NCBI GenBank assembly: GCA_016748015.1
Contig: JAAOMT010000057.1
Coordinates: 452,763 to 516,762, forward strand
Reading direction: 5' to 3'
DNA from: Geosiphon pyriformis uo1
Lineage: Eukaryota; Fungi; Glomeromycota
Length of the DNA: 64,000 nt
Position 1 is the stretch's first letter. Every line of letters starts with the position of its first letter. Below, piece by piece: positions 35,952 through 64,000 of this stretch. Made by a program: the position numbers and the translations under genes. The notes beneath the pieces are model-generated. The model searched no databases and was not told the origin of the DNA. It worked only from the letters and a program-made list of their open reading frames with translations.

Positions 35952-36126
35952 TTTTTCTTTTTTAAAATTGAGCTTTTGTAAAATTGTATGCATCTGTAAA
36001 ATCTTCATTTTCTGTATAATGTTTGATTATTGCTTTAATTATTGTCTTTTTTAAGTCTTTAAATTCTGCATTCATTATTTGTTTTATGTTATTGACTGTA
36101 ATAGTCTCTAAAAAGCTGTTTAGCAG

Positions 36127-36941
36127 TATTACTTATAGAAAATAAAAATCATAGTAGTATATATTAGCTAATCAGAAGTAGACATAGTAAAATGAGAAAT
36201 TCCAAGATTTTTCTCAAAGAAATTACAGGATTTCAGATATTACAAGATTCTCATACAAGAAATTACAGGATTCCAGAATTACAGAATTCCAGGAATTCCA
36301 GAATTTCTGGTGGAAAAAATAGAGAAATTGAAGAATTTTAAATATGTATATATAGCAATAGCATTAGTAGTAAAAAAGACAAACCTCTCAGTTTAAATTT
36401 TATTTAAGAAATTTTTTAATTCACAAATATCAATAAATAATTATTTGTCATCTTAATCTACTCTCCACTATCAATATTTTATGTTAATAATAACTGATAC
36501 TTAACCACACTAGAACAATAATTCTTGATTATGACTATTGATAAAATACTAATATTCATTGCTTTGGCTTATTTCTTTCTTTTATTTTATTTTATTTTAT
36601 TTTATTTTATTTTATTTTGTTATTTCTTGTTGTTGACTAATTGATTAAAGATTAAAGTACTGAGTTATTGACATCAAGAATTGTCTGGTAAAAGACTTCT
36701 GCAAATAGGTAAAACATGTAAGAAATATGGATTGCTTACCAAAGGATTGCTGGCCACCAAGTCAAAAAAAGAATTGACAAAATTGCAATTCCAAGAGGCT
36801 ACTGAAACCAACCATTAAATTTTTGTCCATTATACAAAGTACTCAACCAAAACCTTCAGATATTACCAATTATATTAGTTATTAAGCACCAAGTTATGAG
36901 TTTGTTATTTGATTTGAGACTCCAAATAATTATCTGTAACA
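36127..36941 (+). mobile_element. Solo LTR (family 1, subtype with TTCCAGAA repeats) with 4-bp TSD GCAG
   Basis: T(A)TTACTTATAGAAA...ATCTGTAACA, flanked by GCAG at 36123-36126 and 36942-36945. Confidence 0.9.
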
Positions 36942-37245
36942 GCAGTATAATTAAGCAGTGTTTAAATGCTGTATATAATTAATATGCTGCTTTGTAGTAT
37001 ATTATTAAGTTGTTTTTTTCTATAAATATTTTTACTTGTTTAAAAGCTTTTTTATTGAATGTTTGTTGATTAAGGTTTTCATATAATATCCTCAATCCTA
37101 TTTGTTTACCAATTTTATAGAACTAGTAGACTAGTGAAAATTTTTCTTTTCATACTCTAGAGTTTTTGGATGTCTATTTTCTTGTTATTGGTTTTAATAT
37201 TAACCTACTTAAAGCTTTTTTTATTTCTTCGAGCTTGACCTGACA

Positions 37246-37280
<35 letters not shown>

Positions 37281-37906
37281 CTTTAATTGTTTGTAGGGAT
37301 AAAAACATTCAGTTTTAGTTGAACTTTTGTTCACTTTTTTTTTGCTTTTGTCTTTGTATTATATCTTTTTCTTATTAATTGTGATTTCTATTTAGATTGT
37401 GAATTGTTGAATTGTCTCAAATAGTTGTTTTGAGAGTTTTAGAATTTGATTTAAAAGATCTATATTAAGAGTTCTATTATTTTTCTTGCTGTTTCAGCTA
37501 TTATATATACTTAAATTTTTCAATTAAATAGTTATATGTTAATTATGTTTCAATAATGATAATTGATTCCAAATTTTGTAATATATTTTTTGGTTTGATT
37601 AATGGAATCTGTGTTTCTAATTGCAGTATGAATAACAATGTTTCTTGTTTTGTATAATAAATTTTTAACTAATTTCTATGTACTACTTTCTTTAAAATTC
37701 TGTTTTCCAATCTTAATTTGTAAGCTTTATTGTCTAAAACTTTGTGTATGCGAAATAGACCATTTTATTTCAGATTAAACTTTCTATTCTACTGTTTCTT
37801 AGTCTTTGTACAATGTAACAATATATGGTCTCTAATTTTGAATTCAATTAGTTGGTCAAATAAGCAATTATTATGTTTTTTTTTTGTTGTTTTTGAGTTT
37901 TACTAA

Positions 37907-38832
37907 TGTTATAGGTGATTATTTGGGATCTCAAATCAAATAACAAACTTATAACTTGGTGTTCAATAGCTGAATTATGTTGGTAATATTTGAAGATTGT
38001 TTGTATCTGAAAGTTTTAATTGAGTCTTTTTTATAATAAACAGAGATTTAATAATTGTTTTTAATAGCCTTCCGAAATCACAATTTCATCAATTTTTTTC
38101 TTGGCTTGGTAGCCAGCAATTCTCTGATAAGTAATCCTTAAATTCAAGTATCTACTCTTTTACAGAAGTCTTTTACCAGGCAATTCTTGATATTAATAAC
38201 TCAGCATTTAATTCTTAATCAATTAATAAACAACAAAGAAATAAAATACAAAAGAAAATTAAAGAAAATAAAATATAAGCCAAGGTAATAAAGTTAGTAT
38301 TCCATCAATAGCTGTGATCAAGAGCTATTCTTTTAGTATAGTTAAGTATTAGCAGCTATTAACATGAAGTATTGATAATTAAAGTCTGATAAATATTTAT
38401 CAATCATATAATAGCAACATGAATTGGATATAAATAAGTATTTTATTGATATTTTGATAATTTTATTTCAATAAATATGAACTATCTGGGAAGTGATTAG
38501 TGAATAAATAGGAAGGAAAGTCCAAATTAAGAGGTTTTGGTTCTGATTCTGTCTTTTTTGCTTCTAATACTCTTGCTATATATATATAATTTAGATTCTA
38601 TAAGATTGCTTATATTCTCGAGCAATATGCTATAATTTTTTAAGCAATACTTATATTGCTGAACAATGTGCCCTAATTTTCTAATATTGCTTTACATTGC
38701 TAAGCAATGTGCTGTAATTTCTAATATTGCTCCACATTGCTGAGCAATGTATTCACATGCCAATTACTACTCTCCTATTGGTCTATTTGTTTTCCTACTA
38801 TTTTCTTTTATACTTTTTCTTTATGAATAACA
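37907..38832 (-). repeat. 3' LTR of A (926 bp, 4 palindromic units)
   Basis: TG...CA termini on both strands; PPT adjacent. Confidence 0.92.
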
Positions 38833-38845
38833 TTATCTCCTTCTT

Positions 38846-39481
38846 TTAATATTGAGCTCTGTTAAAATTTTCACTTTGAATTAAGTCTAATACTTCTTTT
38901 TCTAATACTATTTGTTCAACTTTGTTTCTTATATTTTCGATTTATGCATTGTTTATTCTTCCTTATTGGTTAATGGTAATTGTCTCCATGTTGGAATGTA
39001 ACAATATTTCTGGGTAATTTTGAAATATTGTGTGTAGTTGATAGATTGTTCTAATATATAGTAATAGATTTGTCTTCTTTCTAATAATATTTTCAATATT
39101 CTGTATTATTTCTTGATTGAATATTCTTTTGGTTTTATCAAGATATAATTTTTGAATGTTCAATTTTTGTTCCAACTGATAGTAGCAGTATGGTATTAGA
39201 AGTTGTTCTGTTTATTGTTTCCAATTATCTTTTGAAAGTTTTTTTGTTGGAATCATGATGGGTATTTTCTTAAAAGTGTTTTTTACTTTCTCTACTATTT
39301 TATCTGATCTGTTTCTTGATTGTTTTTGTGGTCACTGGTATGGTGTACTTTTTCTTTTTTGTTTAGTGTTTCAATAACAGATTGTTTGGTGGTTAATGAC
39401 AATTTCTATGTTTAATTGTTGTTGACTTAAGGCCTGAAACAATTGTTGAGCTAAGATGTAAATATAATCTGGTATTTCCAT
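38846..39481 (-). pseudogene. ORF3 of element A (212 codons including stop), unknown function
   Basis: MEIPDYIYILAQQLFQAL...FNRAQY*; same 636-bp length as, and collinear with, 60401-61036. Confidence 0.75.
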
Positions 39482-42400
39482 TTTTTTTGATGTTTTTGTT
39501 GCATATACTGTGTCTTTATATATTCTTTTGGTTGTTTAATTTAACATGTTTGGTTTAATGATTATAATTGGTTTTAGATCTTATGGAATCTTATCTGGTT
39601 GAACTAGTATTTATTGTACTCCCAGTTGTGGAATATTATTGGTGAATGACAATACTATATGATAATATGGTTTCAGTTAATTATTATGTGCTGCTTTGGC
39701 TAAGATTTTGTTGTCTTATCTTAATTTATAAGCTCTATTTCCTAGAATTTTTTCTATGTGAAATGGTCCATCTTATTTGGGGTCAAATTTTCCCACTTCA
39801 TTGTTTTTCCATTTTAATACAAGTAAGAGTATTTTGTTTTCAATTCTAAATTTAACTGGTTTATCCAATAGTTGGTTATCATGTCTTTTTTTTTGTTTTT
39901 TTTGTAACTTTTGAATATTATCAGCTGCTCTTTACTATTTGTTTTTTAGTATTTCCATTAAATTATATGTTTTTCTTAACAATGTTTCTTGGAAATTGTC
40001 TTCTGTTATTGGTTTAGTTAGATATGTGCTGACTTCTATCTCTACTAATATTATTGCTGTTTTACTGTATATTAATTCAAATAGTATTGCTTGTGTAATG
40101 TCTTGCTTCATTATCTAATAAGCAAATAATACTGATAATATAAACAAATTCTATTTGTCTTAATTTTTTTGGCTAATTTTGGCAATTGCTTTACACAATG
40201 TTCTATTGAATTTTTCGACTAAGCCATTGATTTGTGGATAATATGGTAATGATAATAATTTTTTTATTCCAAATCTTTGGCTTAATTCTGCTAATGTTCT
40301 ATTCACAAAGTAAGTTCCTTGGTTAGATAATAATTTTTTTGGACATTTATGTCGATAAATCAAATTTTGATGAACAAATTCAGCAATGAATTCTGCATCT
40401 GTTTTTTGAATGGCTTTTGTTTTTGGCCACTTAGTAAGATAATCTATGACTATTGCTATATATCTGTTTCTTTTGCTAGTTATTTTTAATGATTTGACTA
40501 AGTTAATTCCAATGTGATTGAATGGTTGTTCTACTTTAATTGGTCTCAAAAACTTACTGGGTTTTGTTCTTCTTCTTCTCTGATAAGCATCACAATTTTG
40601 AACATATTAGATAATATCTGGATATATAGATGGCCAATAGTATCTTTTTCTGGTTTTTTTCATGATTGCTTCTTTATGAAAATATCCTGCTGTTAGATCT
40701 GAGTACATATTGAATAGTATTGTTTTTTTTTCTGGTTCTGTAATTACTCTGAGTGGTTGGTCTGAATTTTTTCTGTTTTTCTGATATAATATATTTTGGT
40801 AATTAATAAAATATTTGGATTGTTGTTTTATGTTGTTCTATTTCTTTGAAAATAATTTTTTCTTAAACTGCTGGGTATTAATATAGTGTTGAAGTTGTTA
40901 ATATTTTTGTGTATTTATTTTTGTTATATTTTTAGATTGAAATGTTCTTAGATTTGTCTCATTCATAACAAACTGTCAACATTTCCATTTTTTTTCTTTT
41001 TTTGTAATGTACTGTATAATTAAATGATAAAAGTTTTATTTTTCATCTAATATAGTACTTATCTTCAAATTTTTGCTTCTGGATTGAAGTCAATTTTTTA
41101 TGATTAGTGTATATGTCAAATTTCTGACTTAAGTATTTCTTTCATTTTATGACTGCCCAATAGATAGTTAAGTGTTCTAATGCTGGTGTTCCATAGTTTT
41201 TTTCAGCTGGACTTAAGCTGTGACTAACATATGCTACTGGGTGTTCTCTTCTATCTGGTTTTTTCTAAGATAGTACAGCTCTTAATACTTGACCCAATAC
41301 ATCAGTTGTGATTATGAATGGTTTGCTATAATCTGAATAGATCAGTACTGGAGCTTGAATAAGCTTTCTTTTTAATGTATTAAAAGCCTCTTGCTAGTTT
41401 TCCGTCTATTTATATTTGGTGTTTTTTGTTTGGAGCTGGTATAATGACTGAGCCAGTTTAGAAAAGTCTTTGATAAAGTGATAATAGTAACCTGCAAATC
41501 CTAAGAATGCTTGTAGTTCAGTCAAGTTGGTGAGTACTAGAAAGTTTTTAACTATCTCAATTTTGTCTGGATCCATCTTAATTTCATCTTTGCTCACAAC
41601 ATGTCTCAAAAATTTTAATTTTGTTTTGCCAAAAAAGCATTTGGTTGCATTTAACTTTAATCTGGCTCTTTTTAGTCTTTTAAATACTTGTTGGAAATGA
41701 TGTAAATGATCATCAAATGTCTTTGAAAACACGTTGGTATTATCCAAATATATGATTACTGATTTTCATAATAGTCCAATATAGACAATTTCCATAAGCT
41801 GTTAAAATATGGCTGAAGTATTTATTAAGCCAAAAAGCATAACTTTAAATTCAAAATTTTTTTCTCAGGTTGTAAAAGCTGTTTTCTCCTTATTTTCTGG
41901 TTTCATGGCTACTTGCCAGTAATTATTGTCTAAGTTTAAAGTTGAGAACCATTTTTTTCCTCCAAAAACATTGAAAAGTTCTTGGATCTTTGGAATTGGG
42001 TAGCTATCTTTTTTTGTTACTCCATTAAGTTTTTAGTAATCTACACAAAAGCAGATTTTTCTATTCTTTTTATGAACTAGTACTATTAGTAATGACCATA
42101 GACTCATTGATAATTAAATTAACCTATTGTCTAACATCTGATTGATTTTTTGTTAGATGATTTTATGGCTTGCTGGTGGTATTTGGTATGCTTTTTGTTT
42201 AATTGGCATTGTATCTCTAGTTTTGATTTAATGTTGAATTATGTTAGTTCTGCCAAATTTATTTTTACTAACAAAAATGTTATTGAAGTTGTTGAGTAAT
42301 ATCTTAAGCTGCATATATTGTAGTGAATTTAAATTTCCCAAGTTTATTTGTTCTAATTGTTCTAGTTGGAACAGATAATATTTTTCTTATTCATATATTG

Positions 42401-42779
42401 TTTGTGATGTGATATCCACATATCCACACAGTTGTAGAAAGTCTAAAATAGGGTTTGGTGGTTGTTCTTCAACTTTAGTGCTTAAATATTCAATGGTAGT
42501 TTCTGTTGGTATTTCAATGACATCTCTTATTATATTGTAGATGAAAATTTTGATATGTTTTAGACTTTTGGCTAGTATGTAAAAATTGGTAAATTCCATC
42601 TTTCCTGATTCACAAATGATAGTTTTCACTTCAAAAATTTGAGCTTGATTCTTTATTCTCTTTTCTATGACTAATATGTACTGGTTATATGATAAAATAA
42701 AAATTGATTAACAGGTGGAGATAATTTTTTCTTTGTCAATAACTTCTTTTTTTGCCATATTAACTGGTACATCTATTCT

Positions 42780-43155
42780 ACTTATGAATCCAAATTCACT
42801 AATCCCTCTACTGTAATCTCTAATTCTTCCATGTTTCTCACTAATACTAATTGAGCTATTTTAACTAGAGATAGAAATATTGTCTGTGCTATTTTTTTAT
42901 TTGGCTCTATGATATAAGTCTTTTCTAAATCATTTTGTAGTATTGCAATAATATTTTTTATATATCTTGTGTCAATTATTCTTTCTCTGATATTGATTCC
43001 TCTTTTTGCTAAACTACTTTTAGATGCTAATTAAACCATCATTGTTGCTGGAATTTCCAGTGCTACTTTGAAATCAATGCAGGTGCATGAATGTAGTTCC
43101 AATTTGATGGTTTTTTTTTCAGATATCTCAAATCAAACTTTGCATCCATATCATG
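42780..43155 (-). pseudogene. dUTPase domain of element A pol
   Basis: DAKFDLRY / LASKSSLAKRGI / IIDTRYIKNI / KIAQTIF: decayed dUTPase motifs 1-4, with a motif 5 remnant. Confidence 0.85.
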
Positions 43156-46100
43156 TATGCATTTGGGTATAATACCTTTATTATTATCACTGAACCATTT
43201 AAGTTCTTGCTTCTTAGTAAGGTCAGAAAACATGATATATTGTTTTGGATTTAAATTAGAGTTCAAACTATTGTTATTGTTATTGCCAATTTAAATGGAG
43301 CTAAAACCATTGTTTTCATTGTCATCATTGTTAGAATTTGAATTGAAATGAAATGTTGATTCTGGTTCTAATATACAGCTGCTAATTGGTTTTTTTTCTT
43401 CTGAGATCATGTAAATTATGCATGATGGTGAATTGTAGATAAGGTTACACTTATTACAATACTGAAAGTCATATGAAATCAAACAGTGGTCACATAATCA
43501 GGTGTTTATTTCTTCCAAGCACTATTTTTGCTCTTTTTTTGTTGGTGCCAAATTCCGGTAATGCTTGTAGAATTTCTTTGGATCTGTTTTAATATCTAAA
43601 AATGTGTTTAAATTGGGAATGAGAACAATATTAACTGGTTCTGGAGAATTGTTTTTTATCTCCAGGATTTTATTGGGTGAAGCATCTTCTATTTTGGCAT
43701 TGGTCATTTGCCAGATCTCATCTTTGTTGTGCAAATAACTGTCCAAGCAAGAGATTACTCAGTGCCATATGGCAGTAATAGATATGCCACAACTAATCCA
43801 GTTGCTTATGAAGATCGTGCACTGACATGAAGTGTCACATATTTCTCTTTGACCAAGAATGTTGTTCTATATTCCCTTATTAAGTAATTGTTTATTACAA
43901 GTGAGACATGGTTTGTTGTTCCACTTGTTCTGTCTTTTTGAATAGTCATAATATTTTCTATGGTATGACTTGCAATAATAATGTGTTCTGGTCTAATAGT
44001 CTTCATTAGATGCTATTCATGCTCTTATGGAGAATAGCTTCTTGTTGCAATCTTAACATTTGAGAAGAATATATGATGGCTTCTTGATGGGTTTGTGTAA
44101 GTATAATTGTTTTTAGCTACTAGTTATTTCTTCTATGGCTGTGGTTTCTTCAGGTTTGTCTTCTTCTTTTCCTTTTTCTTTGTTGTTCTAAGAAAGTATT
44201 GGTGGCAGTTTGTTGTGGTCAGTGTTAGTCCATAAGACTTGGTAGGCTTTTCAGATAGATTTGTTTTCTTCTTTTAAATGAATTAGCAGTGCTGGCATAG
44301 TGTGGGATTTGAAATAACTGCACATGACTGGTACCTAGATGTGATGTTTGTTCTGACTGAGTTGTAATTTCTAAGTAGTCCAATCAATTACAGTATTTGC
44401 TTTAATCAGCCAGTTATTTCCAACAAGAGCTTGGTATTGGGTGGCTTTTATAATTAGGACTTTAATAGGAATAGTAATGCCATTAACTTTAAAAAGGAAG
44501 TCATCAATTTTACTGATTGGAATTTTGGTTGTTTTATTAGCAGTGATAATTTTGGTGCTGGCAGTTTGATCAACTTGACAACCTAATTGGTCCATAAGTT
44601 GGTATGTAATGATGCTGCCTACTGAACCACTGTCCAAGATCAGTTTGATTAACTGACCATTGATCTTAGCATTGGTGTACATTGTGGTGATGAGTTTGGC
44701 ATCAAGAATGGCTTCACTAAAAAGAAGTACTTTGGTTGGTTCTTTGATTTTGAAGAGAAAAATTGCTGCTAATAATTTGTTGTTAGTGACAGTAGCTAGA
44801 GATATGTTACTGTTAATTATTTGTTTTGGAGTGCATTCTAAGTTGTTGAATGAGGTGTTTTCTGGAGTAACTAGTAGACTTAAATAGTTCTGGAAATTCG
44901 GATTTTAAATATATTTGGTTCTCAAACTTTGCAGTTGTAATTCTGAGAATTGGATTGAAAAACTGGAAATTAGTTGATGCATGATTATTGTTAATCTTCA
45001 GTTTTGTTGGGTATGGGTAACTCTTGGCCTTTGAGTTTTAGTGATTAATTAAGCTAAATTTGATGGCAGTGTTTGAATTTATTGGAATTAATAGATCACT
45101 TGGAACTGTGACTAATAGGTAGGTTGTGACTGTAGTTGATAAATTACAGGTGCTATAGGCTGATAAATTGGTGGTAAATACATTTACTACATCATTGGTG
45201 GGTAATAAAGTTGATAATAGTTCTGATTTGGGTGGTAATTTGGAATTTGAAATTGGTGATTAGGGTTTTGATATTGATTTCCTAATCATTGATTATTAAT
45301 TCTAGTGTGGTAATCAATCCTAATATGTCCTTGTTTATCACAATTGTGACAGATACATGTCTTTTGTTGCCACAATAGTCAAGTTGACAATGATATGAAA
45401 CATGACTGATTTTGGTAATAATTTCTAAGATTGTTATAACATTGTGACAGTTGATATATTGCCTGATTGTTGTTAGCTAAGTACTCTTCTAATTTCTAAT
45501 TGATTGAATCACTAAATTGTTTCAATTTAGAATCCAATTTAAATAATCTGTTTATTACTAGATTTACAGCTGGACATAGTTAGCTTCAAGTTTAGCTGAT
45601 TCAAAGTCTCTGGCATATGTAATTGCTGCTTACAAGTCAGCTAGATGTAATAAACATATATGTTAAAGGATACTACTGTGCAGACCATAAATAAACTGGT
45701 TCAAAATTTGTGGTGCTGTGAAATAGTTGACATTGATTGCTTGGATTTGGCACAGATTTCTATGAAAACATCCTAAGTAAGTGATAACTGCTTTAGTGTC
45801 TCCTTATTTTATAGTGGTGAAGGTATTAACCAAGTGGTTAATCCTGTTATTATTACTAAAATATCTTAGAAATTTTAGCTTAAATGTGTCGAAAGTTTGG
45901 GGTTTTTGAACCAAACTTTAATATCACGAGTTGGCAGTATTCTATAGAAAATAGAGAATGGCTTGTAGTGTTCTGGTGTCATTCCATCTATTGGCTGTAA
46001 TGGTTTTTTTTATGTTGTTGAGTCATACTTGGGTATTGTCTTCTTTGCCAGTAAATTTTTCTATTTTGGCAATTGAAACATAAGCTATTTGTACTGCAAT

Positions 46101-47034
46101 TTGTTGTGGTTGTTATGGTGGTTGTTAAAGTAGTTGCTGATGTTGTATTGGCTGTTGTAGTGATATAGCAACTGGTAGTGAATCAATTACAAGTTTTGGA
46201 GGTAAGTTTTGCTGAGTAACAATGTTGAGGTTTGGATTGTTCTAATTTTACTGAGTTTAATCAATCAGAGTTTGATTTTCTGGGTTTTCTGAAATTAAAT
46301 TTTGATAATTAAATTTCTGATCTTCATTTTTTTCTTCTTCTGATTCCATCACTTCTTAAAAACTCATGGCTCTGAAATTTGGTTGAGATAACAGTAATCA
46401 AAATCCTGATGGTGTTAGTGATCACAATTTAAATCCTTCAAAATAATCATTATAGGTTCCTAACAATTCTGCTTTCTTTTGTTTACTTTAAAATGGAAGT
46501 TAGACTAATGATGATTTTGCATTTGAGGTGGACATGCCTAGTGATGAAATATTGATAGTACTTCTAAGTTGGTGATTCTACTCTTGTTTTTTTCCAAGTA
46601 GGTGATTGTATTTTTTGAAGTGTTATCATTGGTGTTTGTAGTTTTTTTTTGCCTTTGTTTGCATAAGTAATTGGATATTTTTGTTGAGTGTGATTTTCAA
46701 TTTCTCTATTGATTTCAATAAGGATTGCTGTGAAATTATAATTTGCTAGTAGGCTAGTATTTTGAATTAATTTGTTGTAAAAATTTCCTCTTGCTGAGTT
46801 GGTTTCTACTAATACTCTTAGCAAATATGAGATTCTCTTATTAATATAAAAATTGAAGGCAGATTTTACTGATAGGTAATTGTTGGTTAATTTCAAGTGT
46901 TAACAATAATACTGAAATAAAGATTTGGCAAATCCTAAATAATTTGTTCTTATTCTTTCTGGTTTTGCCACTTTTGAATGGTTGTGTATTGGTGCTGGTT
47001 TTTTGTAGAATTATATCTCACAGAAAGCACTAAA

Positions 47035-47879
47035 TGTTACAGGTGATTATTTGGGGTCTTAAATCAAATAACAAATCTGTAACTTAGTGCTCAATAGTTG
47101 AATTATGTTGGTAATATCTGAAGATTGTTTATATCTAAAAGTTTTGGTTGAGTTCTTTGTATAATGAACAGAGATTCAATAGTTGTTTTCAGTAGTCTTT
47201 CAGAATCACAATTCTGTTAATTCTTTTCTTGGCTTGGTGGCCAGCAATCTTCTGGTAAGTAATCCTTAAATTCAAGTGTCTACTTTTTTGTAAAAGTCTT
47301 TTACTAGGCAATTCTTGATGTCAATAACTTAGTATTTAATTTTTAATCAATTAATAAACAACAAAGAAATAAAATACAAAAGAAAATTAAAGAAAATAAA
47401 ATGTAAACCAAGGTAATAAAGTTAATATCCTATCAATAGCTATGATTAAGAGCTATTGTTCCAGTATGGTTAAGTATCAACAGTTATTAACATGAAGTAT
47501 TAATAGTCAGAGTCTGATAAATATTTTTTAATCATATGATAGCAACATGAATTAGATGTGGATAAGTATTTTATTGATATTTTGATGATTTCACTTCAGT
47601 AGATACAAACTATCTAAGAAGTAATTAGTAAATAAATAGGAAAAGAAATTCAAACTAAAAGGTTTTGGTTCTGATTCTGTTTTTTCTGCTTTTAATGCTC
47701 TTGCTATATATACATAATTTAGGTTCTACAGAATCACTCACATTCCCAAGTAATGTGCTATAATTTTTTAAGCAATGCTTACATTGCTAAACAATGTGCT
47801 TACATGCTAATTACTACTCTCCTATTGGTCTATTTGTTTTTTTACTATTTTTTTTTATATGTTTTCTTTATGAATAACA
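47035..47879 (-). repeat. 5' LTR of A (845 bp, 2 palindromic units)
   Basis: TG...CA termini; followed on the minus strand by the PBS TT-TAGTGCTTTCTGTGAG. Confidence 0.92.
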
Positions 47880-50717
47880 CTAATATTGTTAGCTGTTGTT
47901 CTATGATTGTTTTTTAATGTTTCTATATGCTGATATGTTTTTTGGTATAAAGTAGTTTCAAAATTTTTTTTGGTATTGTTTTTGTTAAAAAAAAAGATAT
48001 TTTTTATTTAATAGATAGAGTAGTTTTTTTTTATAGATTAGTTTGAATAGTGTAAACTGGGTAATATTTTGCTTTAATATTTGGTATATAAATAATACAG
48101 AAAGTATAAATAAGTCTTATTCTTACACATTTTTATAACTTAATTTTGCTAATGTTTTATACAGTGTTTAGTTAAATTGTTTTACCAGTTTATTTGTTTG
48201 TAGGTGATAAAATAACAATAAGAGTTGTTTTATTCCAAACTATTAGCTTAGTTCAGTTAGTGTACTATTGATAAAATATATTTCTTGGTTGAATAACAAT
48301 TCTTTTAAACATCTATGATGGCAAATTAGATCTTAGTATACAAACTTAGCTACTGTTTTAGCATCAACTACTTGGATCACTCTGGCTTCTGGCCACTTGG
48401 TAAGATAATTTACAACTACAGCTATGTAACAATTTTCCTTGAATGTAATTAAAAAAAGACCAACCAAATCAATCTTTATTTTATCAAATAAATTTCCAAC
48501 TAGAATAGATCAAAATAGTTCCATTGTTCTGGTTTCTCTTTTTTATTGGCATGAATTATTGTTAAGAACATATTCAAAAATGTTTTTATATATTATTGGC
48601 CAATAGTATAGATTTGTGGTTTTTTCTAGAATAGTGTTTTTATTGAAGTGTTTTGCAGTTGGGTCAAAATACATACTATGCAAAACAGTTTCTTTTTTAT
48701 TGTTTTTTATAATTTGTTGTGGAATAATATAATTTTAGCATTCTTGATAGTATAATTGGTTGTTCTAAATAAAGTAATTACAAGCTTGTTTCTATATACT
48801 ACTTTGTTTTTGTTAAGATAATAGCTCCTTGAACTGAAAAGTTAATAAATACTAATGTAATCACTAATAGGTAGTTGTATCTATGAATTTAAAATTAGAT
48901 TTGTATTATCTTTGATAAACTGTTGGCATTAGTGTTTTTGAATTCTTTTTTATAATGAACTTTGTATGAGAATTGTTGCAGATAAGTATTCTATTATGTA
49001 TATCTTCCTTCTAGTTGTGGTTTACTGAATAACCAAATAAGTCTCTTATAATTAGTATATAGGTTAAATAGTTGGCAAAGATAGTGTCTCCAATTTTGTA
49101 CTGCTTAGTAGATAGCAAAACATTCTAAATTTGTTATGTTATATATTTTCTTTACTGCACTAATACTGTGATTGGCATAGACAATTAGATGCTCTCTATT
49201 GTCTGATTTAATTTGTAACAGAATGGCTTTTAATGCATTTTTTAAGATGTCTGTAGCAATGATGAAATGTTTATTAAAATTTAAATAAATCAATATTGGT
49301 GTTTTTATTAAGCACTATTTAAAATAATTAAACACTTTTTGTTGTTTTTTTTTTATAAGTACAGAACATATTTCAAAAGTAAATGATAAAAAAATTTTGC
49401 AATGTCAGAGAAGCCTTTGACAAATCAACAATAATATCTTGTCAGTCTTAAAAATTCTTGTAATTCTTGCAGATTAATTAGAACCAGAAAATTTTTAACT
49501 TTCTGAACTTTATTTGGATTAAGTTTTACTTTGTTTTTGCCTATTACATGTCTCAGAAATTTAAGTTCAGTCTTTTCAAAAAAACATTTGTCAGAATTAA
49601 GTTTTAGTTTAATGTTATAAAGATAATTAAAGACTTGTTAGAAATAGAGCAAGTAGTTGTTAAATGCTTTAAAAAATACATTGGTGTTATTCAAATATAT
49701 TATGACTGATTTCCAAAAAATTTTCTTGTACACAATATTTATAAGATGCTAAAAAATAGCAGAAGTATTGCAAAGTCCAAAGAGTATTATATTGAATTCA
49801 AAATTTTTGTTTTGTGTAGTAAATATTATTTTTTTTGTCTTTGGAGTTTATTTTGACTTGCCAATATTCACTGGCTAGATCCAAAGATAAAAACCATTTC
49901 TTATTTTTCAAATTATTCAGAATTTTTTGAATCAAGAAAGTAAAATAATTATTCTTTTAAATAATACTATTTAACTTTTAGTAGTTTATGCAAAACTGTA
50001 TTTTCCCATTTTTTTTGATGGCCAATATGACTGGAGAAAACCAAAGGCTTAACAATTTTTTGATTAACTTATTATTTAATATTAATTATACTTTTTGTTT
50101 AATCAGATTATTGTTTGCTGGAGTTACTTGATAGATTTATTGTTTAATAGATTATACATCTTTTATGTCAATCTGAGTTTTATAATATCAGTATATTCAA
50201 ATTTATTTTTACTGGTAAAAACATTGGTGTATTGATTCAAGAAAATTTTGATTTATATTTATTGGAGTATACTTAAGTTTCTTAAATTTAGTTTAGTAAT
50301 TTTTTTAGATGTAAACAAATAATTTTCTTTTGGCAGGTTTCATACTTGTAAAGTAATATCACAAAATAAAAACAGTTGTACAAAGTTCAAAATAGGCTGT
50401 GGTTTCTCAGAATTCTGAATGTTGGAAGAAATGAAGCCAACAAAAATTCTTTCAGAAATTTCAATAACATTTTTAGTAAGGTTGTAAATAAAAATTTTAA
50501 AATTTTTATGAGCCATAATAGAGATATATAGGTTAGCAATATCAGGTAGGCAACAGATTTCTAGATTGGCTTTAAATAATAAAACTTAGTCTTAGATCTT
50601 TCAATTCACCTTAAAAATATACTGTTAATATAGAAAAATAAAGATGACTGTATTAGTGTAGATGAATTCTATTTTGTTACTGTCTTTTTTTACAAAATTA
50701 ATTAGTACATTCTCTTT

Positions 50718-51092
50718 TCCACTTAATTTAAACCCATTAATATCTTTGGTAGTAAAATCTAGTTTTTTGTGTGATGTAACTGGGATTAATTGTGATATTT
50801 TTACAAAAAGTAGGAAAATAGCTTGAGCAATCTTTTTTTGTGATTTAATTGTATAGAGTTTATTGAAATTGTTTTATAGTATAATAATGATGTTTTCTAT
50901 ATATTTGGCATTAATAATTATTCCTTTTATGTTGATTTTTTTTACAAGACTTGACTGTGAGACAACTTAAATCATATTATTAACAAAAATTTTTAAAGCT
51001 ATTTTGAGATCTATTTTTACAAGAGAGTATAAAGTTATAACTACAGAGAATTGTCTGAAGTATCTTAAATCAAATCCAGCATTGTTTTCATG
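50718..51092 (-). pseudogene. dUTPase domain of element B pol
   Basis: HENNAGFDLRY / SQSSLVKK / KGIIINAKYIENI / KKIAQAIF / KDINGFKLSG. Confidence 0.82.
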
Positions 51093-51809
51093 TGTTTTTT
51101 CAAAGCAAATTTCTTTATTGTCATTACTATATTATTTCAATTCTAATTTCTTAAAGAGATTAGAGTAGATAAAATACTGTTCTATTTTGGTAGTATTATT
51201 TGGCTTTTAAAATAACATGTTCTTAGCATCAAACTTATATTATTCTTCTGGTTTTAATAGTTTAATAATAGAGTATAGTGTTCTTGAAGGTAAATTAAAT
51301 ACGAAATTACACTTATTACAGTATTGAAAATAACAAAAAATCAAGCAATAACCACACAGTTTTGTATTAAGATCTGCAAGTCTCTGTTTTTGTTCTTTTT
51401 AGATTAGAGCCAGTTCTTAATATTAGTTTTAGAATGCTTTGGAATCATTTGTAAATATGTTGTTTATTTCTTTAATTGTTACTAAGACATTTTTTATAAT
51501 ATGTATTTTCTTAATAATGGCTTCTTTTCATTTGGCTGTGACTATTTTCTAAATTTTTTTTTTATTATGGGGCCATAAATCCAGTCAGTTTATTATTTAA
51601 CTATATGCTGTTGTAAATGGAATGTTTTTTTTGGTTCAGTTATTTATTAGGATAGTGTATTGACACAATTCATTACTGTTACTTATAGAAATTAAGAATA
51701 TTATAGTTAAAGAAATAGCCAATCAGAAGTAAGCATAATAATAAAAAAATTGTAAAATTCCAGAATTCCAGAATTCCAAAAATTTTATATAATATTAATT
51801 ATATATATA

Positions 51810-55113: not shown

Positions 55114-55303
55114 AATTCAAACTCCACTGATAACAGCAATGATTCAAACACTACTAATGACAGCAACAATTCAAACTTCGCTAATGACAACAATGATTCA
55201 AACTCTGCTAATGACAACAACAATTCAAACTCCACTAATGACAACAACAATTCAAACTTCACTAATAACAATAACAATTCAAACTCTGCCAACAACAAAT
55301 TCA
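55114..55303. repeat. 27-bp tandem repeat, ~7 copies (ATTCAAACTCCACTAATGACAACAACA)
   Basis: Gives the 9-aa periodicity IQTxLMTTT seen in ORF 55019-55462. Confidence 0.9.
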
Positions 55304-55586
55304 AACTCCACTTCAAACACTGAACAATATATCATGCTTCTAGATCTTATAATGGAGCAGAAATTAACTAAATTCAGTAATAATAATGAGAGCATTATGT
55401 CTAAACATACACATAATACAGATGCAAGATTTGAAATTAATATTTTGGACAGACTGCTATAGTTAAAAACCCCAGTCATGTATAAAATTAGATTTACAAA
55501 TAGCAATAAAAATTACAGCAACAACATTAATACAAAAGAGAAATTTAGAAAATTTTGCAGAAGCTTAATATTAAAGAAAGAAATAA

Positions 55587-56569
55587 TGTTACTTATAAAA
55601 AAAAAATACAAGAAAATAGTAGGAAAAAACAAATAGAGAAAATAGACCAATAAGAGAATAGTATTTAGCATATGAGCACATTGCTCAGCAATGTGAAACA
55701 TTGTCAGAGAATTACAACACATTGTTCAGCAATAAGCACATTGTTAGAAATTACAGACACATTGCTCAGCAATGTAGAGCAATGTCAGAAATCATGGCAC
55801 ATTGCTCAACAATGTAAGCATTGCTTGAGAAATTATAAAACATTGCTTGAGAATGTGAACAATCTTGTAGAACTCAAATTATATATATATAGCAGTAGTA
55901 TCAGAAGTTAGAAAATTAGTCAATTAGGCTCAAAATTAAGAAAACTGAAAGTCAGTAGGACTTTCAGAGTCAATTAGACTCACAGGTTATAATTATTAAA
56001 TATTCTTCCTTTAAAAGATAGAATACTATAACTTGAAGTAAAATTACTCTCATATTAATGTTATTATCCACTACTTAACCTGCTGGCACAATAGCTCTTG
56101 ATCACAGCTATTAACAGAATACTTATTTTTTATTTTATTTTATTTTCTTTATTTCTTTATTTTCTTTTATTTTCTTTATTTTATTTTCTTTTCTTTTGTT
56201 ATTCACTAAATTGATTAAAGAGTTAAGTGCTAAGTTATTGATGTCAAGAATAGCCTGGTAAAAGACCCCAAAGGAAGGGTATTGGAATTGAGAATTTAAG
56301 GATAGCTTACCAGAAAGGCATTTCTGCCAAGATTACCAGCCACCATGCTGAGAAAAAAATTCGATGGAATTGTGATTCTGAGAGGCTATGAGAAAGACAA
56401 CAATTAAATTTCTGTCCATTATACAAAAAACTTCACAACAAAATCTTCAGATCTACCAAACCTTCAGATAAAACAACACCTTCAGAGATACCAACACCAA
56501 TTATATTAATTGAGCACCAAATTACAGGTTTGTTATTTGATTTAAGACCCCAAATAATCACCTGTAACA
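55587..56569 (+). repeat. LTR (family 1, palindrome subtype, 5 units)
   Basis: TGTTACTTATAAAA...CACCTGTAACA, preceded by a PPT. Confidence 0.9.
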
Positions 56570-56724
56570 ACAATTCCAGCTCTGCTCAATATAACAATGA
56601 AAATAACAATAATTCGGACTCTGATTCAAAACCCAAAACATATATCGTGCTGTTTAATCTCACTAAAAAGCAGGAACTTAAATAATTCAGTGATAACAAT
56701 GAAGATATTATGTCAGAACAAGCA

Positions 56725-57102
56725 CATAATACCAATGCAGAGTTTGATTTAAGATATCCAAAGAAAGATGCTTTCAAATTGGAACCACATTTGTACACTT
56801 GTATTGATTTGAAAATAGCACTAGAAATTCTAGCAATAACAATAGTTCAATTAGCATCTAGGAGTAATCTAGCAAAAAAAGGAATTAACATTAGAGGAGA
56901 AATAATTAATGCAAAATATATAGAAAATATCATTACAATGCTATAAAATAATTCAAAAAAAGCCTACATTATAGAGCCAAATAAAAAGATAGCACAGACA
57001 ATATTCCTGTTTTTGGTTAAAATAGCTCAATTAGTATCAGTAGGAAACAAGAAAGAATTAGGAATTACAGCTAGAGGAATACAGGGTTTTGGATTCACAG
57101 GT
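56725..57102 (+). pseudogene. dUTPase domain of element D pol
   Basis: All five motifs are recognisable: NAEFDLRYP, ASRSNLAKKGI, GEIINAKYIENI, KIAQTIF and RGIQGFGFTG. One stop. Confidence 0.92.
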
Positions 57103-60100
57103 AAAATAAATGTACTAGTTAATATGGCAGAGAAAAAAATTATTGACAAGAAAGAAATTATTTCTACCTGTCAATTAATTTCCATTCCACCATATGATTA
57201 ATACATAATAGTCATAGAAAGAAAAATAAAAGACCAGATTCAGATTTTTGAGACAGAAGCAACACTTTGTAAATCAGAAAAGATTGGATTAGTCAATCTA
57301 CACATACCAGCCAAAAACCACAGACACATCAAAATTTCTATTTATAATAACACAAAAAATATCATTAAAATACTAGAAAAAACTATTATTGGATACTTAA
57401 CCACTGAAATTGAAGACCAACTGCCAAACACCATTGCAGACTTTCTACAACTGTGTGGATATATAGATATTACATCACAAACAATATATGGACAAGAAAA
57501 ATATTATCTGCTCCAACCAAAACAATTGGAACAGATGAACTTAGGAAATCTAGACCCACTACAATATATGCAGCTTAAGGTGTTACTCAACAACTTCAAT
57601 AACATCTTTGCTAATAAAAATGAATTTGGAAGAACTGACATAATTCAGCATCAAATCAAAATTGGAAATGCAATGCCAATTAAACAAAAAGCATAGAAAG
57701 TACTACCAGTTAGCCATGAGATTATTTGTTAAGAAATCAATCAGATGCTTAATAATAGATTAATTCAGTCATTAATAAGCCCATGGTTATCACCAGTAGT
57801 ATTAATCTATAAAAAGAATGAAAAAATCCACTTTTGTGTAGATTACTAGAAACTAAATGGAATAACAAAAAGAAATAGCTACTCAACTCCAAAAATCCAA
57901 AAACTTTTTGATGCTTTTGAAGGAAAAAAATGGTTTTCAACTTTAAACTTAAACAGTGGTTACTGGCAAGTAGCTATAAAACTGGAAGATAAAGAGAAAA
58001 TGACTTTTACAACTTGAAAAAAAAACTTCGAATTTAAAGTGATGACATTTGGCTTGATGAATGCTCCAGCCATATTTCAATGGCTCATAGAAATTGTCTA
58101 TACAGGACTACTATGGAAATCAGTAGTCATATATCTGAATGACACCAATGTGTTTTTAAAAATATTTGATAATCATCTATATCATCTTCAACAAGTATTT
58201 GAAAAACTCAGATGAGCAGGATTGAAATTAAATCCCAACAAATGTTTCTTTGACAAAACAAAACTCAAGTTTTTGGAACATATTGTGAGCAAAGATGGTA
58301 TCAAAACAGATTTAGATAAAATTGAGATTGTTAAGAACTTTCCAGTACCAAATAATTTTATAAAATTAAGAGCATTTTTGGAATTTGCTGAATACTACTG
58401 CCACTTTATCAAAAACTTTTCCAAAATAGCTCAATCACTACACCAACTCCAAACAAAAAACACCAAATATGAATGGACTAAAACTCAACAAGAAGCTTTT
58501 GATATATTAAGAAGAAAGCTTATTCAAGCCCTAGTATTGATCTATCCAAATCATAACAAACCATTCATAATTACAACTAATGCATCTAGTCAAGCATTAA
58601 AAGCAGTACTATCTCAGAAAGAACTGAATGGATAAAAACACCCAGTAGCTTATGTCAGTAGAAACTTAAGTTCAACTGAAAAGAACTATAGAACTCCAGT
58701 ACTAGAACACTTAGCTATCTATTAGGCTGTCATCAAATGGAAAGAATACTTGAGTCAGAAGTTTGATGTCTACACTGATTACAAAGGATTGACTTCAATT
58801 CAGAAGCAAGAATTTGCAGACAATTGTCATACCAGATAGAAAATAGAACTTTTACTATTTAATTATACAGTACACTATAAAAAAGGAAAAAAAAATGGAA
58901 ATGCCAACAGTTTGTCACTAATAAAATAAGTCTAAAAACATTTTCAATCCAAAAATATAACAAAAGATGAATATACAAAAATACCAACAACTCTAATATT
59001 ATATAAATACCCAATTGTTCAAGGAGAAATTATCTCAAAAAAAACAAAATAACATAAAACAACAATCAAAATATTTTATCAACCATCAAAATATACTTTA
59101 TCAGAAAAACAAAAAAAATCTAGATCAACCAACCAGAGTAATCACAGAACCAGAGAAAGAGACAATATTATTCAACATGTATTCAGACTCAACAGCAGAA
59201 CATTTTCACAAAAAAGCAACCATAGAAAGAATCAGAAAAAAATACTATTGGCCATCAATATATCCAAACATCATCTAATATGTTCAAAATTGTGATGCTT
59301 GTCAGAAAAGAAGAGGAACGAAACCCAGTGAATCATTAAAACCAATCAAAGTGGAACAACCATTTGATTGTATTGGAATTGACTTAGTTGGACTATTAAC
59401 AATCACCAGTAGAGACAACAGATATATTGTAGTAGCTATAGATTATCTTACAAAATGGCCAGAAGCAAAAGCCATTTAAAGAGCAGATGTAGAATCTATT
59501 GTCAAATTCATTTATCAAGATTTGATCTGTTGACATAGATGTCCAAAAAAACTATTATCAGATTAAGGAACTCATTTTGTAAATAGAACATTAGCAGAAT
59601 TAAGTCACAGATTTGAAATAAAAAGACCATTATTGTTACCATATCATCCACAAACAAATGAGTTAGTTGAAAGATTCAACAGAACATTGTGTAAAACAAT
59701 AGCCAAGATTAGCCAAGAAAACCAGAATGAATGAAATTTATTTATACCATCAGTATTATTTGCTTATTGGACAATAAAACAAGACATTACACAAGCAACA
59801 TCATTTGAATTAATATACAGTAGAACAGCAATATTACCAGTTAAGATAGAAGTCAAAACATATCCAACAGAATCAATAACAAAAGAGAATTTTCAAAGAA
59901 CATTGTTGAAAAAAACATATAACTTAATAGAGACACTAGAAAACAAATGGTGAAAAGCAGCTGATAACATCCAAAAGTCACAAGAAAAACAAAAAAAAAG
60001 ACACAATAACCAACTACCAGAGAAACCAGTCAAATTCAGAATTGGAGACAAAGTATTTCTACATTGTACCAAAACAGAAAAACAATAGAATGGAAAATTT

Positions 60101-60400
60101 GATCCCAAATGAAACAGACCATTTCACATAGAAAAAATTTTAGGAAATAGAGCTTATAAATTAAGATTAAACAACAAAATATTAACCAAAGCAGCACATA
60201 AAGATTGACTGAAATTATATCAAAACATAATATTAGCATTTACCAGTAATATTCCACAACTGGGAGCATAGAGAATACTGGTTCAACCAGATAAGATTCT
60301 ACAAGACCTGGAACCAATCATAGTTATTGAACCAAACACATCAAATTGAACAAAGAAATATATAAAAACATAGTGGATGCGACAAAAACAACAAAGAAAA

Positions 60401-61036
60401 ATGAAAATACTAGACCATATTTATACTTTAGCTTAACAATTGTTTCAGACTTTAAGTCAATAACAAGTAAACATAGAAATTATTATTAACAATCAAACAA
60501 TTTGTTATTGAAATACCAAACAAAAAAGGAAAAATACACCATACCAGTAACCACAAAAACAATCAATGAACTGGTCAGATAAAATAGTAGAAAAAGTAAA
60601 AAACACTTTTAGAAAAATAACCATCACAGTTCCAACAGAAAAACTAGTGAAAAAAAATTGGAACCAATAGATAGACCAACTTCCAATACCATACTGTTAC
60701 TATCAATTAGGACAAAAAGTAGATATTCAAAAATTATACCTTAATAAATCCAAGAAAATCTTCAATCAAAAGATAATTCAGAACATTGAAGACATTATTG
60801 GAAAGAAAACAAACTTGACATTACATATTAAGACCATTTATTGACTACACACTATATTTCAAAACTACCCAGAAGTATTGTTACACTCTGACATAGAAAC
60901 AATAACCATCAACCAATAGGGAAAAATAAACAACTCACAAATCAAAGAAATAAAGAGCAGAGTAGAACAGACACTACTTGAAAAAGAAGTATTTGACATA
61001 ATTCAAAATGAAGATTTTAACAGAGCTTAATATTAA
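60401..61036 (+). pseudogene. ORF3 of element D (212 codons including stop), unknown function
   Basis: MKILDHIYTLA*QLFQTL...FDIIQNEDFNRA*Y*; no frameshift; the stop abuts the PPT AAAGGAGGAAATAA. Confidence 0.75.
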
Positions 61037-61048
61037 AGGAGGAAATAA

Positions 61049-61884
61049 TGTTACTCATAAAAAAAAAAACAGATATAAAAAATAATAGACCAATAAGAAA
61101 GTAGTAGTTAACACATAAGCACATTGCTTAGCAATGTGGAGCAATATTAGAAATCATGGCATATTGTTCAACAATGTGGAGTAATGTTAAAAAATTAGAA
61201 CACATTGCTCAGCAATGTGAGCATTGTTTAAGAAATTATAGCACATTACTTGGGAATGTGAGTAATCTCATAGAACATCAATTATGTATATATAGTGGTA
61301 GTATTAGAAGTAAAAAAGACAGATCTCTTAGTTTAGATTTGATTTAAGCAATCTTCCACATTACAAATATCAATAAATAATTATTTACTATCTTAATCTA
61401 CTCTCTACTATTAATAATTCATGTTAATAGTTGCTGACACTTAATTACACTAGAAAAATAGCTCTTAATCATGGTTATTGATGAGATATTAATATGCAAA
61501 TTACTTTGACTTATTTATTATTATTTTTTCTTGTTTTATTTTCTTTGTTGTTTGTTAACTTAATTAAAAAATTTATATGTAGAGATACTGACATCAGAAT
61601 ATAGCACTGGTAAAAGACCCAGGAATAAGAGTAGACACTCAGAATTGAAAATATCTTATCAAGAGGATTATTGGCCATTACACTAAGAAAAAAAATTAAT
61701 AAAACTGTGGTTTTGGGAAGCTATAGATAAAACTATCAATTAAATCTCTGTCTATTATACAAAAAACTCCATCAAAACCTTCAGATACAAACAACCTACC
61801 AATATTACCAACCAGAACAACTGTTAAAACACCAAGTTATGGGTTTGTTATTTGCCTTGAGACCCCAAATAATCATTTGTAACA
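61049..61884 (+). repeat. 3' LTR of D (836 bp, 4 palindromic units)
   Basis: TGTTACTCATAA...ATTTGTAACA, following the PPT. Confidence 0.92.
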
Positions 61885-64000
61885 CTATTAACACAAACTA
61901 CTTTATAGTGCCACAGATTTTGAACCAGTTTATCTGTGGACTATGTAGTAGCATTCTTCAGTGCATACATCTATTACATTCACAAACACTTTAAGATATA
62001 ATTATTCATATCAGAGATTTCAAATTACCCAAGCTAAAAGCCAATTACATTCAAGCTATTAATCTAGTAATAAATAGATTATTTAACTTGGACTCCAAAT
62101 TGAAACAATTCAATAATTCTATTAACCAGAAATTAGAAGAATACTTAGTTAACAATTAAGCAATATATTAATCTCTACAATATTGTAACCATTCAGAAAT
62201 TTTCAATTAGTTCCAAAATTAGTCATGTTTTTTTTTATCATCTTATTAATTATGGCCACAAAAAATGTGTATCTGCCATAATTGTAATAAATAAAGCCAT
62301 TTAAGGATTGATTGCCATGCCAAAATTAATAATCAATAATCGGAAAATCAATATTGAAACCCCAATTACTGATTTTAAACTCCAAATTATTAACCAAATC
62401 AAGACCCATATCAATTTTATTACATCCTAATAACACAACAAGCAATATACTCACTATCAATTTATTAGTCTTTAGTATTAGTAATATATTAACTGCAGCC
62501 ACAAGTCATCTATAAACCCCAATTATTTCAAACACCACCACAAAACTTATATAAAAACAGAAGCCAAAGGCCAAAGATCATTCAAATTTGACAGAATTAG
62601 AGATTGGCAATAGTAATACACCAATTAATTTCCAGTTTATCAAACCAATTATTGGGAACATGACAACAAAATTCAGAAAACCACTATGTCTAAAACCCAA
62701 ATATTCAAAACTATTTAAGTCTTTTTATTACACCAGAAAATGTTTTAACCAACAACCAGAAATCAATTAACTTACACTTATCAACAATATTTTATCTGCT
62801 ATCATTACAAACAACAAATTGCTCACAGCCATATTTTTTTTCGAACTGAAAGAACCAATAACAATTCTTTTATTTAATAGAGCAGTTTTTAATACTAAAC
62901 CAATTACCACTATGTATATCAATGCCAAAGTAGATGGCCAATCTATTAAACTCATTCTTAATAGTGGATCAGCAGACAACATCATCATATAACAATTCAT
63001 GAACCAATTAGGTTGCCAAGTTAATTGAACTGTTAGCATAAGAATAATTATTGCTAATAGAGCAATAAAGACTTCAATTGGTGAAATTAATAACTTTTTC
63101 TTTGAAGTTAATGGCATTATTGCATCAATTAAAGTCCTAATTATGGAAGCCACTTAGTACTAAGTGCTAGTTGATAATGATTGGCTGTCCAAAACCAATA
63201 CTGTACTTAACTAGAATACTCAAAAGCTACAATTCAGTCATAATAATTTGCAAACTTAAATACTTGCTATTTGTGGTCATTTTAAATCATTTACTATGTA
63301 ATTATAGCCACTAATTAAATTTGAAGAAGAAATAAACAAATCTATCTGAGAAGCCTATCAAGTTTTATAAACTGAAAAAAAATACAATAAGTTATCATTC
63401 ATACCAAACTAAGAAGAAAAAAAAATGTTCTAAGCAACCACCTTTACATATACTTTGTACACTACTATTAATCAAAACTAGCCAATCTATTGTTGATCCA
63501 AACTAATTTGTGTTAATTGTAATAAGAAATTGTTAACAATAGGCACATATTGTGGTAACAATAAGAAATGGCCAATAGCAATCAAGTATTATTGTCACCT
63601 ATGTGTTCTTAAACACTTTAAATAATTAAAAAGATAAAGAAAATAAAACAACAAACCATGTCTTGCTTGTAGAAAAACTTTTTTAGACAAAGAAACATGA
63701 AATAACATTCTTGGTTGTAAAAAAATGTGTGCCAAATTATGCTAATACACAATTTTTATCAGTGATTAGATAAAAAGAGGAATGCCAATAGACACTGTTT
63801 GAAGGAGAGCCATAAAATATTTAGATGATTGTTTATACAATAATAATGAAATCTGGTGAATGGCAATTGCCAAAATCGAAAACATGTTTTCAGAAAAAAT
63901 AAAAACAATTAAAACAACACACCAGAACCTAAAAAAATTATTTGGATTTTAAACTCTAATATTATTTTTAATGTTATAGATCTGAAACAATTTTACAAAC
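61885..64000 (+). mobile_element. Ty3/Gypsy element E: gag C-terminal half, CCHC, PR, Cys-rich region (continues beyond the window)
   Basis: QILNQFICGLCSSIL, CICHNCNK*SHLRIDC (~62267-62315), YINAKVDGQSIKLILNSGSA (~62915-62975) and CVNCNKKL..PCLACRK (~63510-63680). Confidence 0.88.

Follow-up and report, generated by a model that had tools for sequence, protein, structure and literature searches.

Trans-acting proteins with an anti-silencing or regulatory role that are specific to one family of elements are exemplified by Tas of the foamy viruses and VANC of the VANDAL elements, and in foamy viruses such a regulator occupies a 3' position and is served by an internal promoter. In plant Gypsy retrotransposons, for example Athila and Bagy2, extra open reading frames (ORFs) in sense orientation occur between pol and the 3' LTR and are called aORF-3S, or 'env-like', and the role of accessory ORFs located behind pol in non-infectious LTR retrotransposons is regarded as an open question (PMC7264820). 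Fungal Gypsy elements carrying a dUTPase between protease and reverse transcriptase (RT) were described by Novikova et al. (2010), and the legend to their Figure 3 refers to an additional ORF, its function unexplained; in its accessible parts, their survey extends over Ascomycota, Basidiomycota and one chytrid, deals mostly with chromoviruses and names no Glomeromycotina (PMC2864245).

The locus considered here, an additional gene termed ORF3 that lies behind the integrase of Ty3/Gypsy elements, occurs in several copies within a 64-kb window (the whole stretch of DNA analysed, 64,000 nucleotides) of the fungus Geosiphon pyriformis. In the accessible part of the source, 41.2% of the genome of this organism is given as LTR sequence (PMC11952901). 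Element A is complete (9,973 bp; 37907..47879, minus strand) and is bounded by two TG...CA LTRs that are 86% alike and by a 4-bp target site duplication (TSD), TTAG; it carries a PBS-like sequence and a polypurine tract (PPT), and its order is protease, RT-RNase H (RH), separate integrase (40918-39536), ORF3 and PPT. It sits inside the integrase of an older element, B/C, of another family (about 65% nucleotide identity to element D), the 5' part of which, C (47880..51162, extending to about 51.5 kb, minus strand), encodes dUTPase, RT, RH and the beginning of the integrase. We treat B as the 3' part of the same element because the end of C and the start of B are adjacent when placed on the integrase of D, and the frame runs across the TSD. 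Element D is a 3' fragment from which the 5' part is missing. It consists of a decayed dUTPase-RT-RNase H part of pol with its own stop (56575..58935, plus strand), a decayed integrase (58967..60349, plus strand) with its own ATG, an H2C2 motif, a core and an SH3/GPY-F-type tail, then ORF3, a PPT (61035..61048, plus strand) that overlaps the ORF3 stop at 61034-61036 and, directly after it, the 3' LTR (61049..61884, plus strand; TGTTAC...GTAACA). The order characteristic of Ty3/Gypsy elements, PR-RT-RH-INT, is represented by the protease in A and by the dUTPase, RT, RH and integrase H2C2 and core in D. The decayed D integrase yielded no Chromo match at E<=0.01 and, at its C-terminus, only an SH3_Tf2-1-like Pfam match below the curated cut-off.

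Other remnants crowd the neighbourhood of these elements. Upstream of D, the last 14 or so codons of another ORF3, together with a PPT (55548..55586, plus strand), precede an LTR at 55587-56569; given this arrangement, and a likeness of only 76% to the 3' LTR of D, that LTR probably closes a different element and is not D's own 5' LTR. The segment 53180-56569 (plus strand) is a probable non-autonomous derivative consisting of an LTR, PBS, 1.7 kb of non-coding DNA, the ORF3 tail, PPT and LTR, with an 87-bp tandem array at about 54004-54786 and 27-bp repeats at 55115-55303; the pairing of its two LTRs, only 74% alike, is uncertain. Downstream, 61885-64000 (plus strand) is a gag-protease fragment of another element, with 69% nucleotide identity to 44232-45728 of A and without a PBS, into which D was probably inserted. 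In the polyprotein, a long Cys/His-rich stretch with several CxxC pairs lies between protease and dUTPase (about 44300-42800, minus strand; 63368-64000, plus strand). Two elements have a PBS-like sequence in common (47015-47033, minus strand; 53875-53892, plus strand), the complement of which resembles what we take to be the 3' end of elongator tRNA-Met; no tRNA genes were found within the 64-kb window. Directly upstream of element C there is a decayed Tc1/mariner-type transposase (about 52000-53070, plus strand; DDE_3 match), and an LTR copy at 2477-3422 (plus strand), 68% like the LTR of B (35068-35951), follows a gag-protease-like fragment at the start of the window. A region of normal CpG content encodes host genes for a dehydrogenase E1 alpha (11813-12865, plus strand), an RRM protein (19717-20934, minus strand) and a G-protein beta subunit (26511-27659, minus strand).

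An earlier note on this DNA had drawn attention to a 636-bp, ATG-initiated frame following pol in both D (60401..61036, plus strand) and A (38846..39481, minus strand), in D free of frameshifts and ending at the PPT, and all these details are correct. Each frame comprises 211 codons and a stop, and the two are colinear and ungapped with 82% nucleotide and 72% amino acid identity. The two are nonetheless not open: there are 8 internal stops in D and 5 in A, and both copies are pseudogenes. The remark that the stops in D all lie a single transition away from sense is uninformative, because it applies to any stop codon. What had been flagged in D is the remnant, inactivated by mutation, of a genuine extra gene conserved behind a Gypsy integrase. 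Conservation between two LTR families had also been claimed; A and D are in fact members of one family (80% nucleotide identity over 4.7 kb), so that this claim depends on B, where the peptide quoted as a homologous ORF3 start is indeed present and a full-length homolog was found. A poly-A frameshift and an inserted solo LTR nevertheless divide the ORF3 of B into three pieces. Its N-terminal piece (37329..37463, minus strand), assigned to subfamily F3 and 60% identical to protein P0023 over 57 aa, ends before the frameshift; the middle piece (36942..37275, minus strand) shows 50% identity to P0011 across 110 aa; and beyond the 815-bp solo LTR (36127..36941, plus strand; 4-bp TSD GCAG) lies the C-terminal piece with the stop (35962..36129, minus strand), which has 49% identity to P0023 across 55 aa and is followed by a PPT and an LTR from 35951. 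Compared with the Geosiphon subfamilies, these pieces show 44-60% identity to F3 and 25-33% to F1, the subfamily of the D copy.

The ORF3 frame has been conserved under purifying selection. From composition, about 18 stops would be expected in each copy, against the 8 and 5 present in D and A (P=0.007 and 0.0002, respectively), and at all 9 of the 9 internal-stop sites the intact homolog carries Q, R or W, for which the background is 17%. The 113 differences between the A and D frames are distributed over codon positions 1, 2 and 3 as 37, 21 and 55. A dN/dS value near 1 had been named as evidence that would contradict a selected protein; the NG86 estimate for A versus D is 0.22, compared with 0.37 and 0.29 for blocks of RT-RH and integrase, respectively, and with 0.51-0.80 in a neutral control of three LTR frames. 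As the transition-rich decay biases NG86, a permutation was used instead, in which differences were shuffled among sites of the same base, and this agrees: 55 amino-acid-changing codons were observed, against 72.8±4.1 after shuffling (0 of 5000 shuffles as low) or 70.4±4.2 when trinucleotide context was retained (P=0.0004), and no LTR frame was significant in the same shuffle (P 0.14-0.90). Among the contigs of run X1 at a likeness of at least 80% (n=11,048), no indel within ORF3 reached the 10% listing threshold, and three single contigs skip portions in or near ORF3.

The elements are depleted of CpG, with an observed/expected ratio of 0.05-0.06 against 1.0 in the gene region of the window, which fits heavy methylation. 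Classic RIP was considered; the C/T differences show no preference for CpA (0.40 before A, 0.40 before C and 0.49 before T), and only CpG is lost. Loss of CpG with no such bias makes decay through methylation the likelier process. In a related fungus, according to the accessible part of the report, transposable elements are both methylated and targeted by small RNAs (bioRxiv 2021.03.30.436303).

Intact relatives of ORF3 exist in the same organism. A search with the A copy returned three homologs among 203 candidates, all annotated Geosiphon pyriformis, of which KAG9285377.1 is intact, with 211 aa and 65% identity to ORF3 of A; the intact homolog P0001 shows 66% identity to D and 65% to A, and intact homologs begin at the same Met as the window copies. 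A phmmer scan gave 54 matches and, of the 10 looked up, 8 were from Geosiphon and 2 environmental. The best 120 of 164 matches in one profile search comprised 118 Geosiphon and 2 environmental proteins, and the best 120 of 204 in a second comprised 117 and 3. When 269 collected proteins, many of them fragments or chimeric gene models, were grouped according to which of seven hand-picked seeds they matched best, the subfamilies numbered 12 (F1), 97 (F2), 35 (F3), 4 (F4), 117 (F5), 2 (E1) and 2 (E2). There are thus at least seven subfamilies, five from Geosiphon and two environmental, and the seeds are 20-40% identical to one another. Full-length members have 209-245 aa; of the 117 F5 proteins, 23 have a length of 239 aa. 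The C-terminal peptide derives from the PPT and the start of the LTR in 21 of 117 F5 proteins, 2 of 2 in E1 and 2 of 2 in E2, and this ties the proteins to LTR elements. In these three subfamilies (L001 3093-3148) ORF3 reads over the PPT into the LTR, such that its last residues are set by the priming signal; in F1 to F3 it stops at the PPT. No ORF3 relative was found in viral contigs among 30 and 147 pattern matches, and a tree of 11 ORF3 rows carried long-branch warnings and no order of events was drawn from it.

The DNA context of ORF3 was followed in D, A, B/C and a metagenome contig, L001, which carries RH, a stop, an integrase with one internal stop, a further stop, an open 230-aa ORF3, a PPT and an LTR, and therefore places an intact ORF3 in the same slot, between integrase and PPT, of an independent element. 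ORF3 of L001 is 24% identical to that of D, whereas the identity of these two elements is 52% in integrase and 48% in RH. ORF3 thus diverges about twice as fast as integrase, as would be expected for family-specific proteins or those in conflict with the host, and such a rate also fits any small accessory protein.

The canonical layout, in which integrase belongs to the Pol polyprotein, is absent from D, A, C and L001, where integrase is a separate ORF. Across these four elements of three families, the junctions between RH and integrase (58930-58969, plus strand; 40953-40916, minus strand; 48900-48882, minus strand; L001 769-801) leave 31 nt in D, 29 in A, 10 in C and 24 in L001 from the RNase H stop to the integrase start, which reads ATG in D and L001; A and C have ATA there. 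The integrase stop, at 60347 in D, is maintained, the sole variant listed among the family contigs being another stop. It is separated from ORF3 by 51 nt in D, 54 in A, about 80 in B and 316 in L001; ORF3 is in register with integrase in A and D, 17-18 codons behind the stop, and out of frame in B and L001. With integrase as an ORF of its own, the number of cistrons in the element is three or more; the differing spacers and frames and the fixed integrase stop indicate that ORF3 would be a separate one. Stop read-through is known in SIRE1; a fusion of ORF3 to integrase by read-through was rejected as a general mechanism, given the out-of-frame arrangement in B and L001.

How the putative ORF3 cistron may be expressed is suggested by a TATA-like box in the spacer, at 60359..60366 (plus strand) in D, about 42 nt upstream of the ATG. 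Across D, A and B the distance from such a box to the start is 41-46 nt; in L001 it is greater, at about 126 nt. Among 30-nt background windows, 9 of 148 and 7 of 272 contain a box of this kind. The DNA here is AT-rich and the box was spotted only in retrospect, and as an internal promoter it is suggestive only. No consistent splice acceptor signal (branch point and YAG) was found just upstream of ORF3 in D, A and L001. We would put even odds on an internal TATA promoter, located within the spacer, as the source of ORF3 expression, with reinitiation or splicing otherwise responsible.

The predicted product is a small soluble protein. An AlphaFold model based on a 27-sequence alignment (mean pLDDT 72, pTM 0.61; pLDDT 36 from the single sequence) has an N-terminal helix, a disordered linker at about 32-55 (pLDDT below 50 at 32-38 and 40-55), a hairpin at 56-69 and a helical core at about 81-203, for which block-mean pLDDT is 73-91 over 81-200; a homodimer prediction in which the alignment was not used scored 0.00, which speaks neither for nor against a dimer. 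Typical linkers are basic, with 4-9 K+R, and the pI of the protein varies from 5.2 to 9.3 across 10 representatives, with no uniformly basic net charge. Invariant positions in the 211 alignment columns hold I, L, Y, G, N or F and in no case D, E, H or C, and the one to three cysteines form no conserved column. The lack of an invariant acidic, His or Cys residue suggests a binding protein rather than an enzyme.

Known domains and folds were sought widely. Pfam, at the curated cut-off, gave no ORF3 match for the two window copies and 59 homologs, those above cut-off being confined to chimeric gene models, in their gag, protease, zinc-knuckle or RNase H portions. A PHROGs search with 8 proteins gave a best E of 0.0012 and no family common to several of them, and there was no match to the PDB by sequence or by profile. 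The whole model retrieved nothing at E<=0.001 from PDB and BFVD with Foldseek, and VIA-align gave a best Z of 5.1 (rmsd 5.1, 81 aligned), with none above background. A match to an already described domain, the other finding named as contrary to a new accessory protein, was therefore not obtained by any of these routes; the lack of a fold match does not make the modelled ORF3 fold a new one. A resemblance to DUF1016_N, the N-terminal domain of YhcG, had been seen by eye and was rejected: hhalign gave a probability of 2% with an alignment off the motif, and the score of 20.9 falls within the block-shuffle range of 10.3-22.0 (n=40; template profile of 9 sequences). The selection, the intact homologs and the absence of a known-domain match all uphold the accessory protein proposed in the earlier note, its function aside, and ORF3 is almost certainly a real, selected, non-env accessory gene.

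The linker is of particular interest with respect to localisation. The pattern R/H/K-x2-5-PY is the consensus of the PY-NLS, carried by cargo of Kap104/Transportin, in the accessible part of the source (PMC2408616). A corresponding motif, [RKH]x2-5PY, is present in all three window copies (D, A and B) and, among the linkers sampled, in F1 (1/1), F4 (4/4), E1 (2/2), E2 (2/2), F5 (27/48) and F3 (1/4), compared with 2 of 808 core windows as a control. In F2, the largest subfamily sampled, it is lacking (0/26) and the linker is still basic. A PY-NLS is expected within a disordered and basic segment, and the motif lies, as this rule asks, in the low-confidence, basic linker. Import of the ORF3 protein into the nucleus through this motif is, on balance, slightly favoured.

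The reading that we prefer, at a probability of roughly 0.4, is that ORF3 encodes a nuclear regulator acting in trans, one that helps its own family to be expressed in the face of host silencing. A chromodomain-less, dUTPase-bearing Ty3/Gypsy lineage carries ORF3 as a third gene behind integrase and would express it as a cistron of its own, most likely via the internal promoter; the soluble, helical product would enter the nucleus through the PY motif, bind the DNA or RNA of its own element and increase the expression of that element as a transactivator or anti-silencing factor would. Such a function is suggested by the probable import signal, the absence of catalytic or membrane features, the fast divergence and the methylation-scarred genome. 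Against it stand the absence of the PY motif from F2 and its presence in only one of four F3 linkers, the variable pI and the lack of any detected likeness to a known DNA- or RNA-binding fold, and its promoter component is weakened by the post hoc nature of the TATA box in AT-rich DNA and its greater distance in L001. In its most far-reaching form, which we regard as unlikely, the elements would constitute a 'complex' clade, resident in fungi of the Geosiphon lineage and organised like an envelope-less complex retrovirus, with gag-pol, a separately translated integrase and a nuclear transactivator or anti-silencing protein of new fold under an internal promoter, and through family-specific variants of that protein at least five families would escape methylation and drive LTR expansion in this genome.

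Since the integrase lies outside the polyprotein and lacks a detectable chromodomain, ORF3 could instead be its cofactor, packaging the enzyme, importing the pre-integration complex or tethering it to target chromatin. The separate integrase of D, A, C and L001 speaks for this, as do the PY-type import motif and the way in which ORF3 immediately follows integrase in each of the four elements for which DNA context exists; with ORF3 diverging about twice as fast as its presumed partner, we consider such a role improbable. A nuclear factor acting on RNA, like Rev or CERV, would bind the full-length polycistronic transcript and license its export or translation. For CERV, required for export of the genomic RNA of Cer1 in C. 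elegans, the accessible part of the literature provides a precedent (PMC10309623), the ORF3 product is likewise small and probably nuclear with a basic linker, and a multi-cistron layout may raise the need for RNA sorting. The missing splice acceptor signal in D, A and L001, however, leaves no sign of the conflict between spliced and unspliced RNA that Rev-like factors solve, and this function seems rather doubtful. Quite unlikely, too, is a cytoplasmic role in counter-defence or particle movement, for example as a suppressor of RNAi or a mover of particles through the coenocytic hypha. It would accord with the F2 proteins that lack a PY motif, with the soluble, non-enzymatic and fast-evolving character of the protein and with the small-RNA silencing of transposable elements reported for the related fungus, but the motif is kept in six of seven subfamilies that are only 20-40% identical.

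A degenerate env or env-like protein is largely refuted, and we give it very little weight. ORF3 does occupy the env slot, as a sense ORF between pol and the PPT, but hydropathy, taken alone, gives no indication of a transmembrane segment (best 19-residue Kyte-Doolittle window 0.27-1.33) or of a signal peptide (best N-terminal 10-residue window <=1.54) in 10 of 10 representatives, in line with what the earlier note had maintained; the furin motif R-x-K/R-R is absent from the same 10, the few cysteines are unconserved, the proteins have only 209-245 aa and the model is mostly helical. That the frame is no gene at all, being stop-poor by chance and shared descent or representing an integrase C-terminus severed by a decay stop, may be dismissed: the register with integrase in A and D and the broken state of every window copy would suit it, but purifying selection, intact homologs with the same Met, the fixed integrase stop and the out-of-frame spacers of B and L001 refute it.

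ORF3 therefore represents a real and undescribed accessory protein family that occupies a known kind of slot in an unusually multi-cistronic lineage of fungal Gypsy elements. We found no description of the gene in the literature, and libraries of transposable elements or supplements may already hold the elements themselves. At least 233 'hypothetical proteins' of G. pyriformis are whole or partial matches to the family and are probably transposon rather than host genes. The family is directly testable, being small and soluble, with intact natural members, a usable structure model and an LTR-rich host and, if the anti-silencing or transactivating function that we favour is true, it would be a rarity among fungi and could be responsible for the LTR expansion in G. 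pyriformis.

With Tas and VANC, the resemblance is one of analogy only, no link in sequence or fold having been found. The dUTPase-bearing Gypsy elements of Novikova et al. (2010), likened here by their description in the accessible parts of the paper, combine dUTPase and an extra ORF as do the Geosiphon elements (PMC2864245). CERV of Cer1, as far as its accessible description goes, is similarly a novel soluble accessory protein of an LTR retrotransposon, and a nuclear one; likened by description, it differs from ORF3 in being produced from a spliced mRNA and in having a demonstrated export function (PMC10309623). The plant aORF-3S share with ORF3 the slot, the orientation, conservation in most copies of a family and an unresolved function (PMC7264820), whereas ORF3 occurs in a fungus, behind a separate integrase, and lacks a transmembrane segment, a sign of a splice acceptor and a family match. 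Gene23 of Grande and the antisense aORFs, likened by description, are antisense and occur in plants, unlike ORF3, but they too are accessory genes in the 3' internal region with no database match and, with a nuclear product and a promoter of their own, they offer the closest functional picture for ORF3 (PMC7264820).
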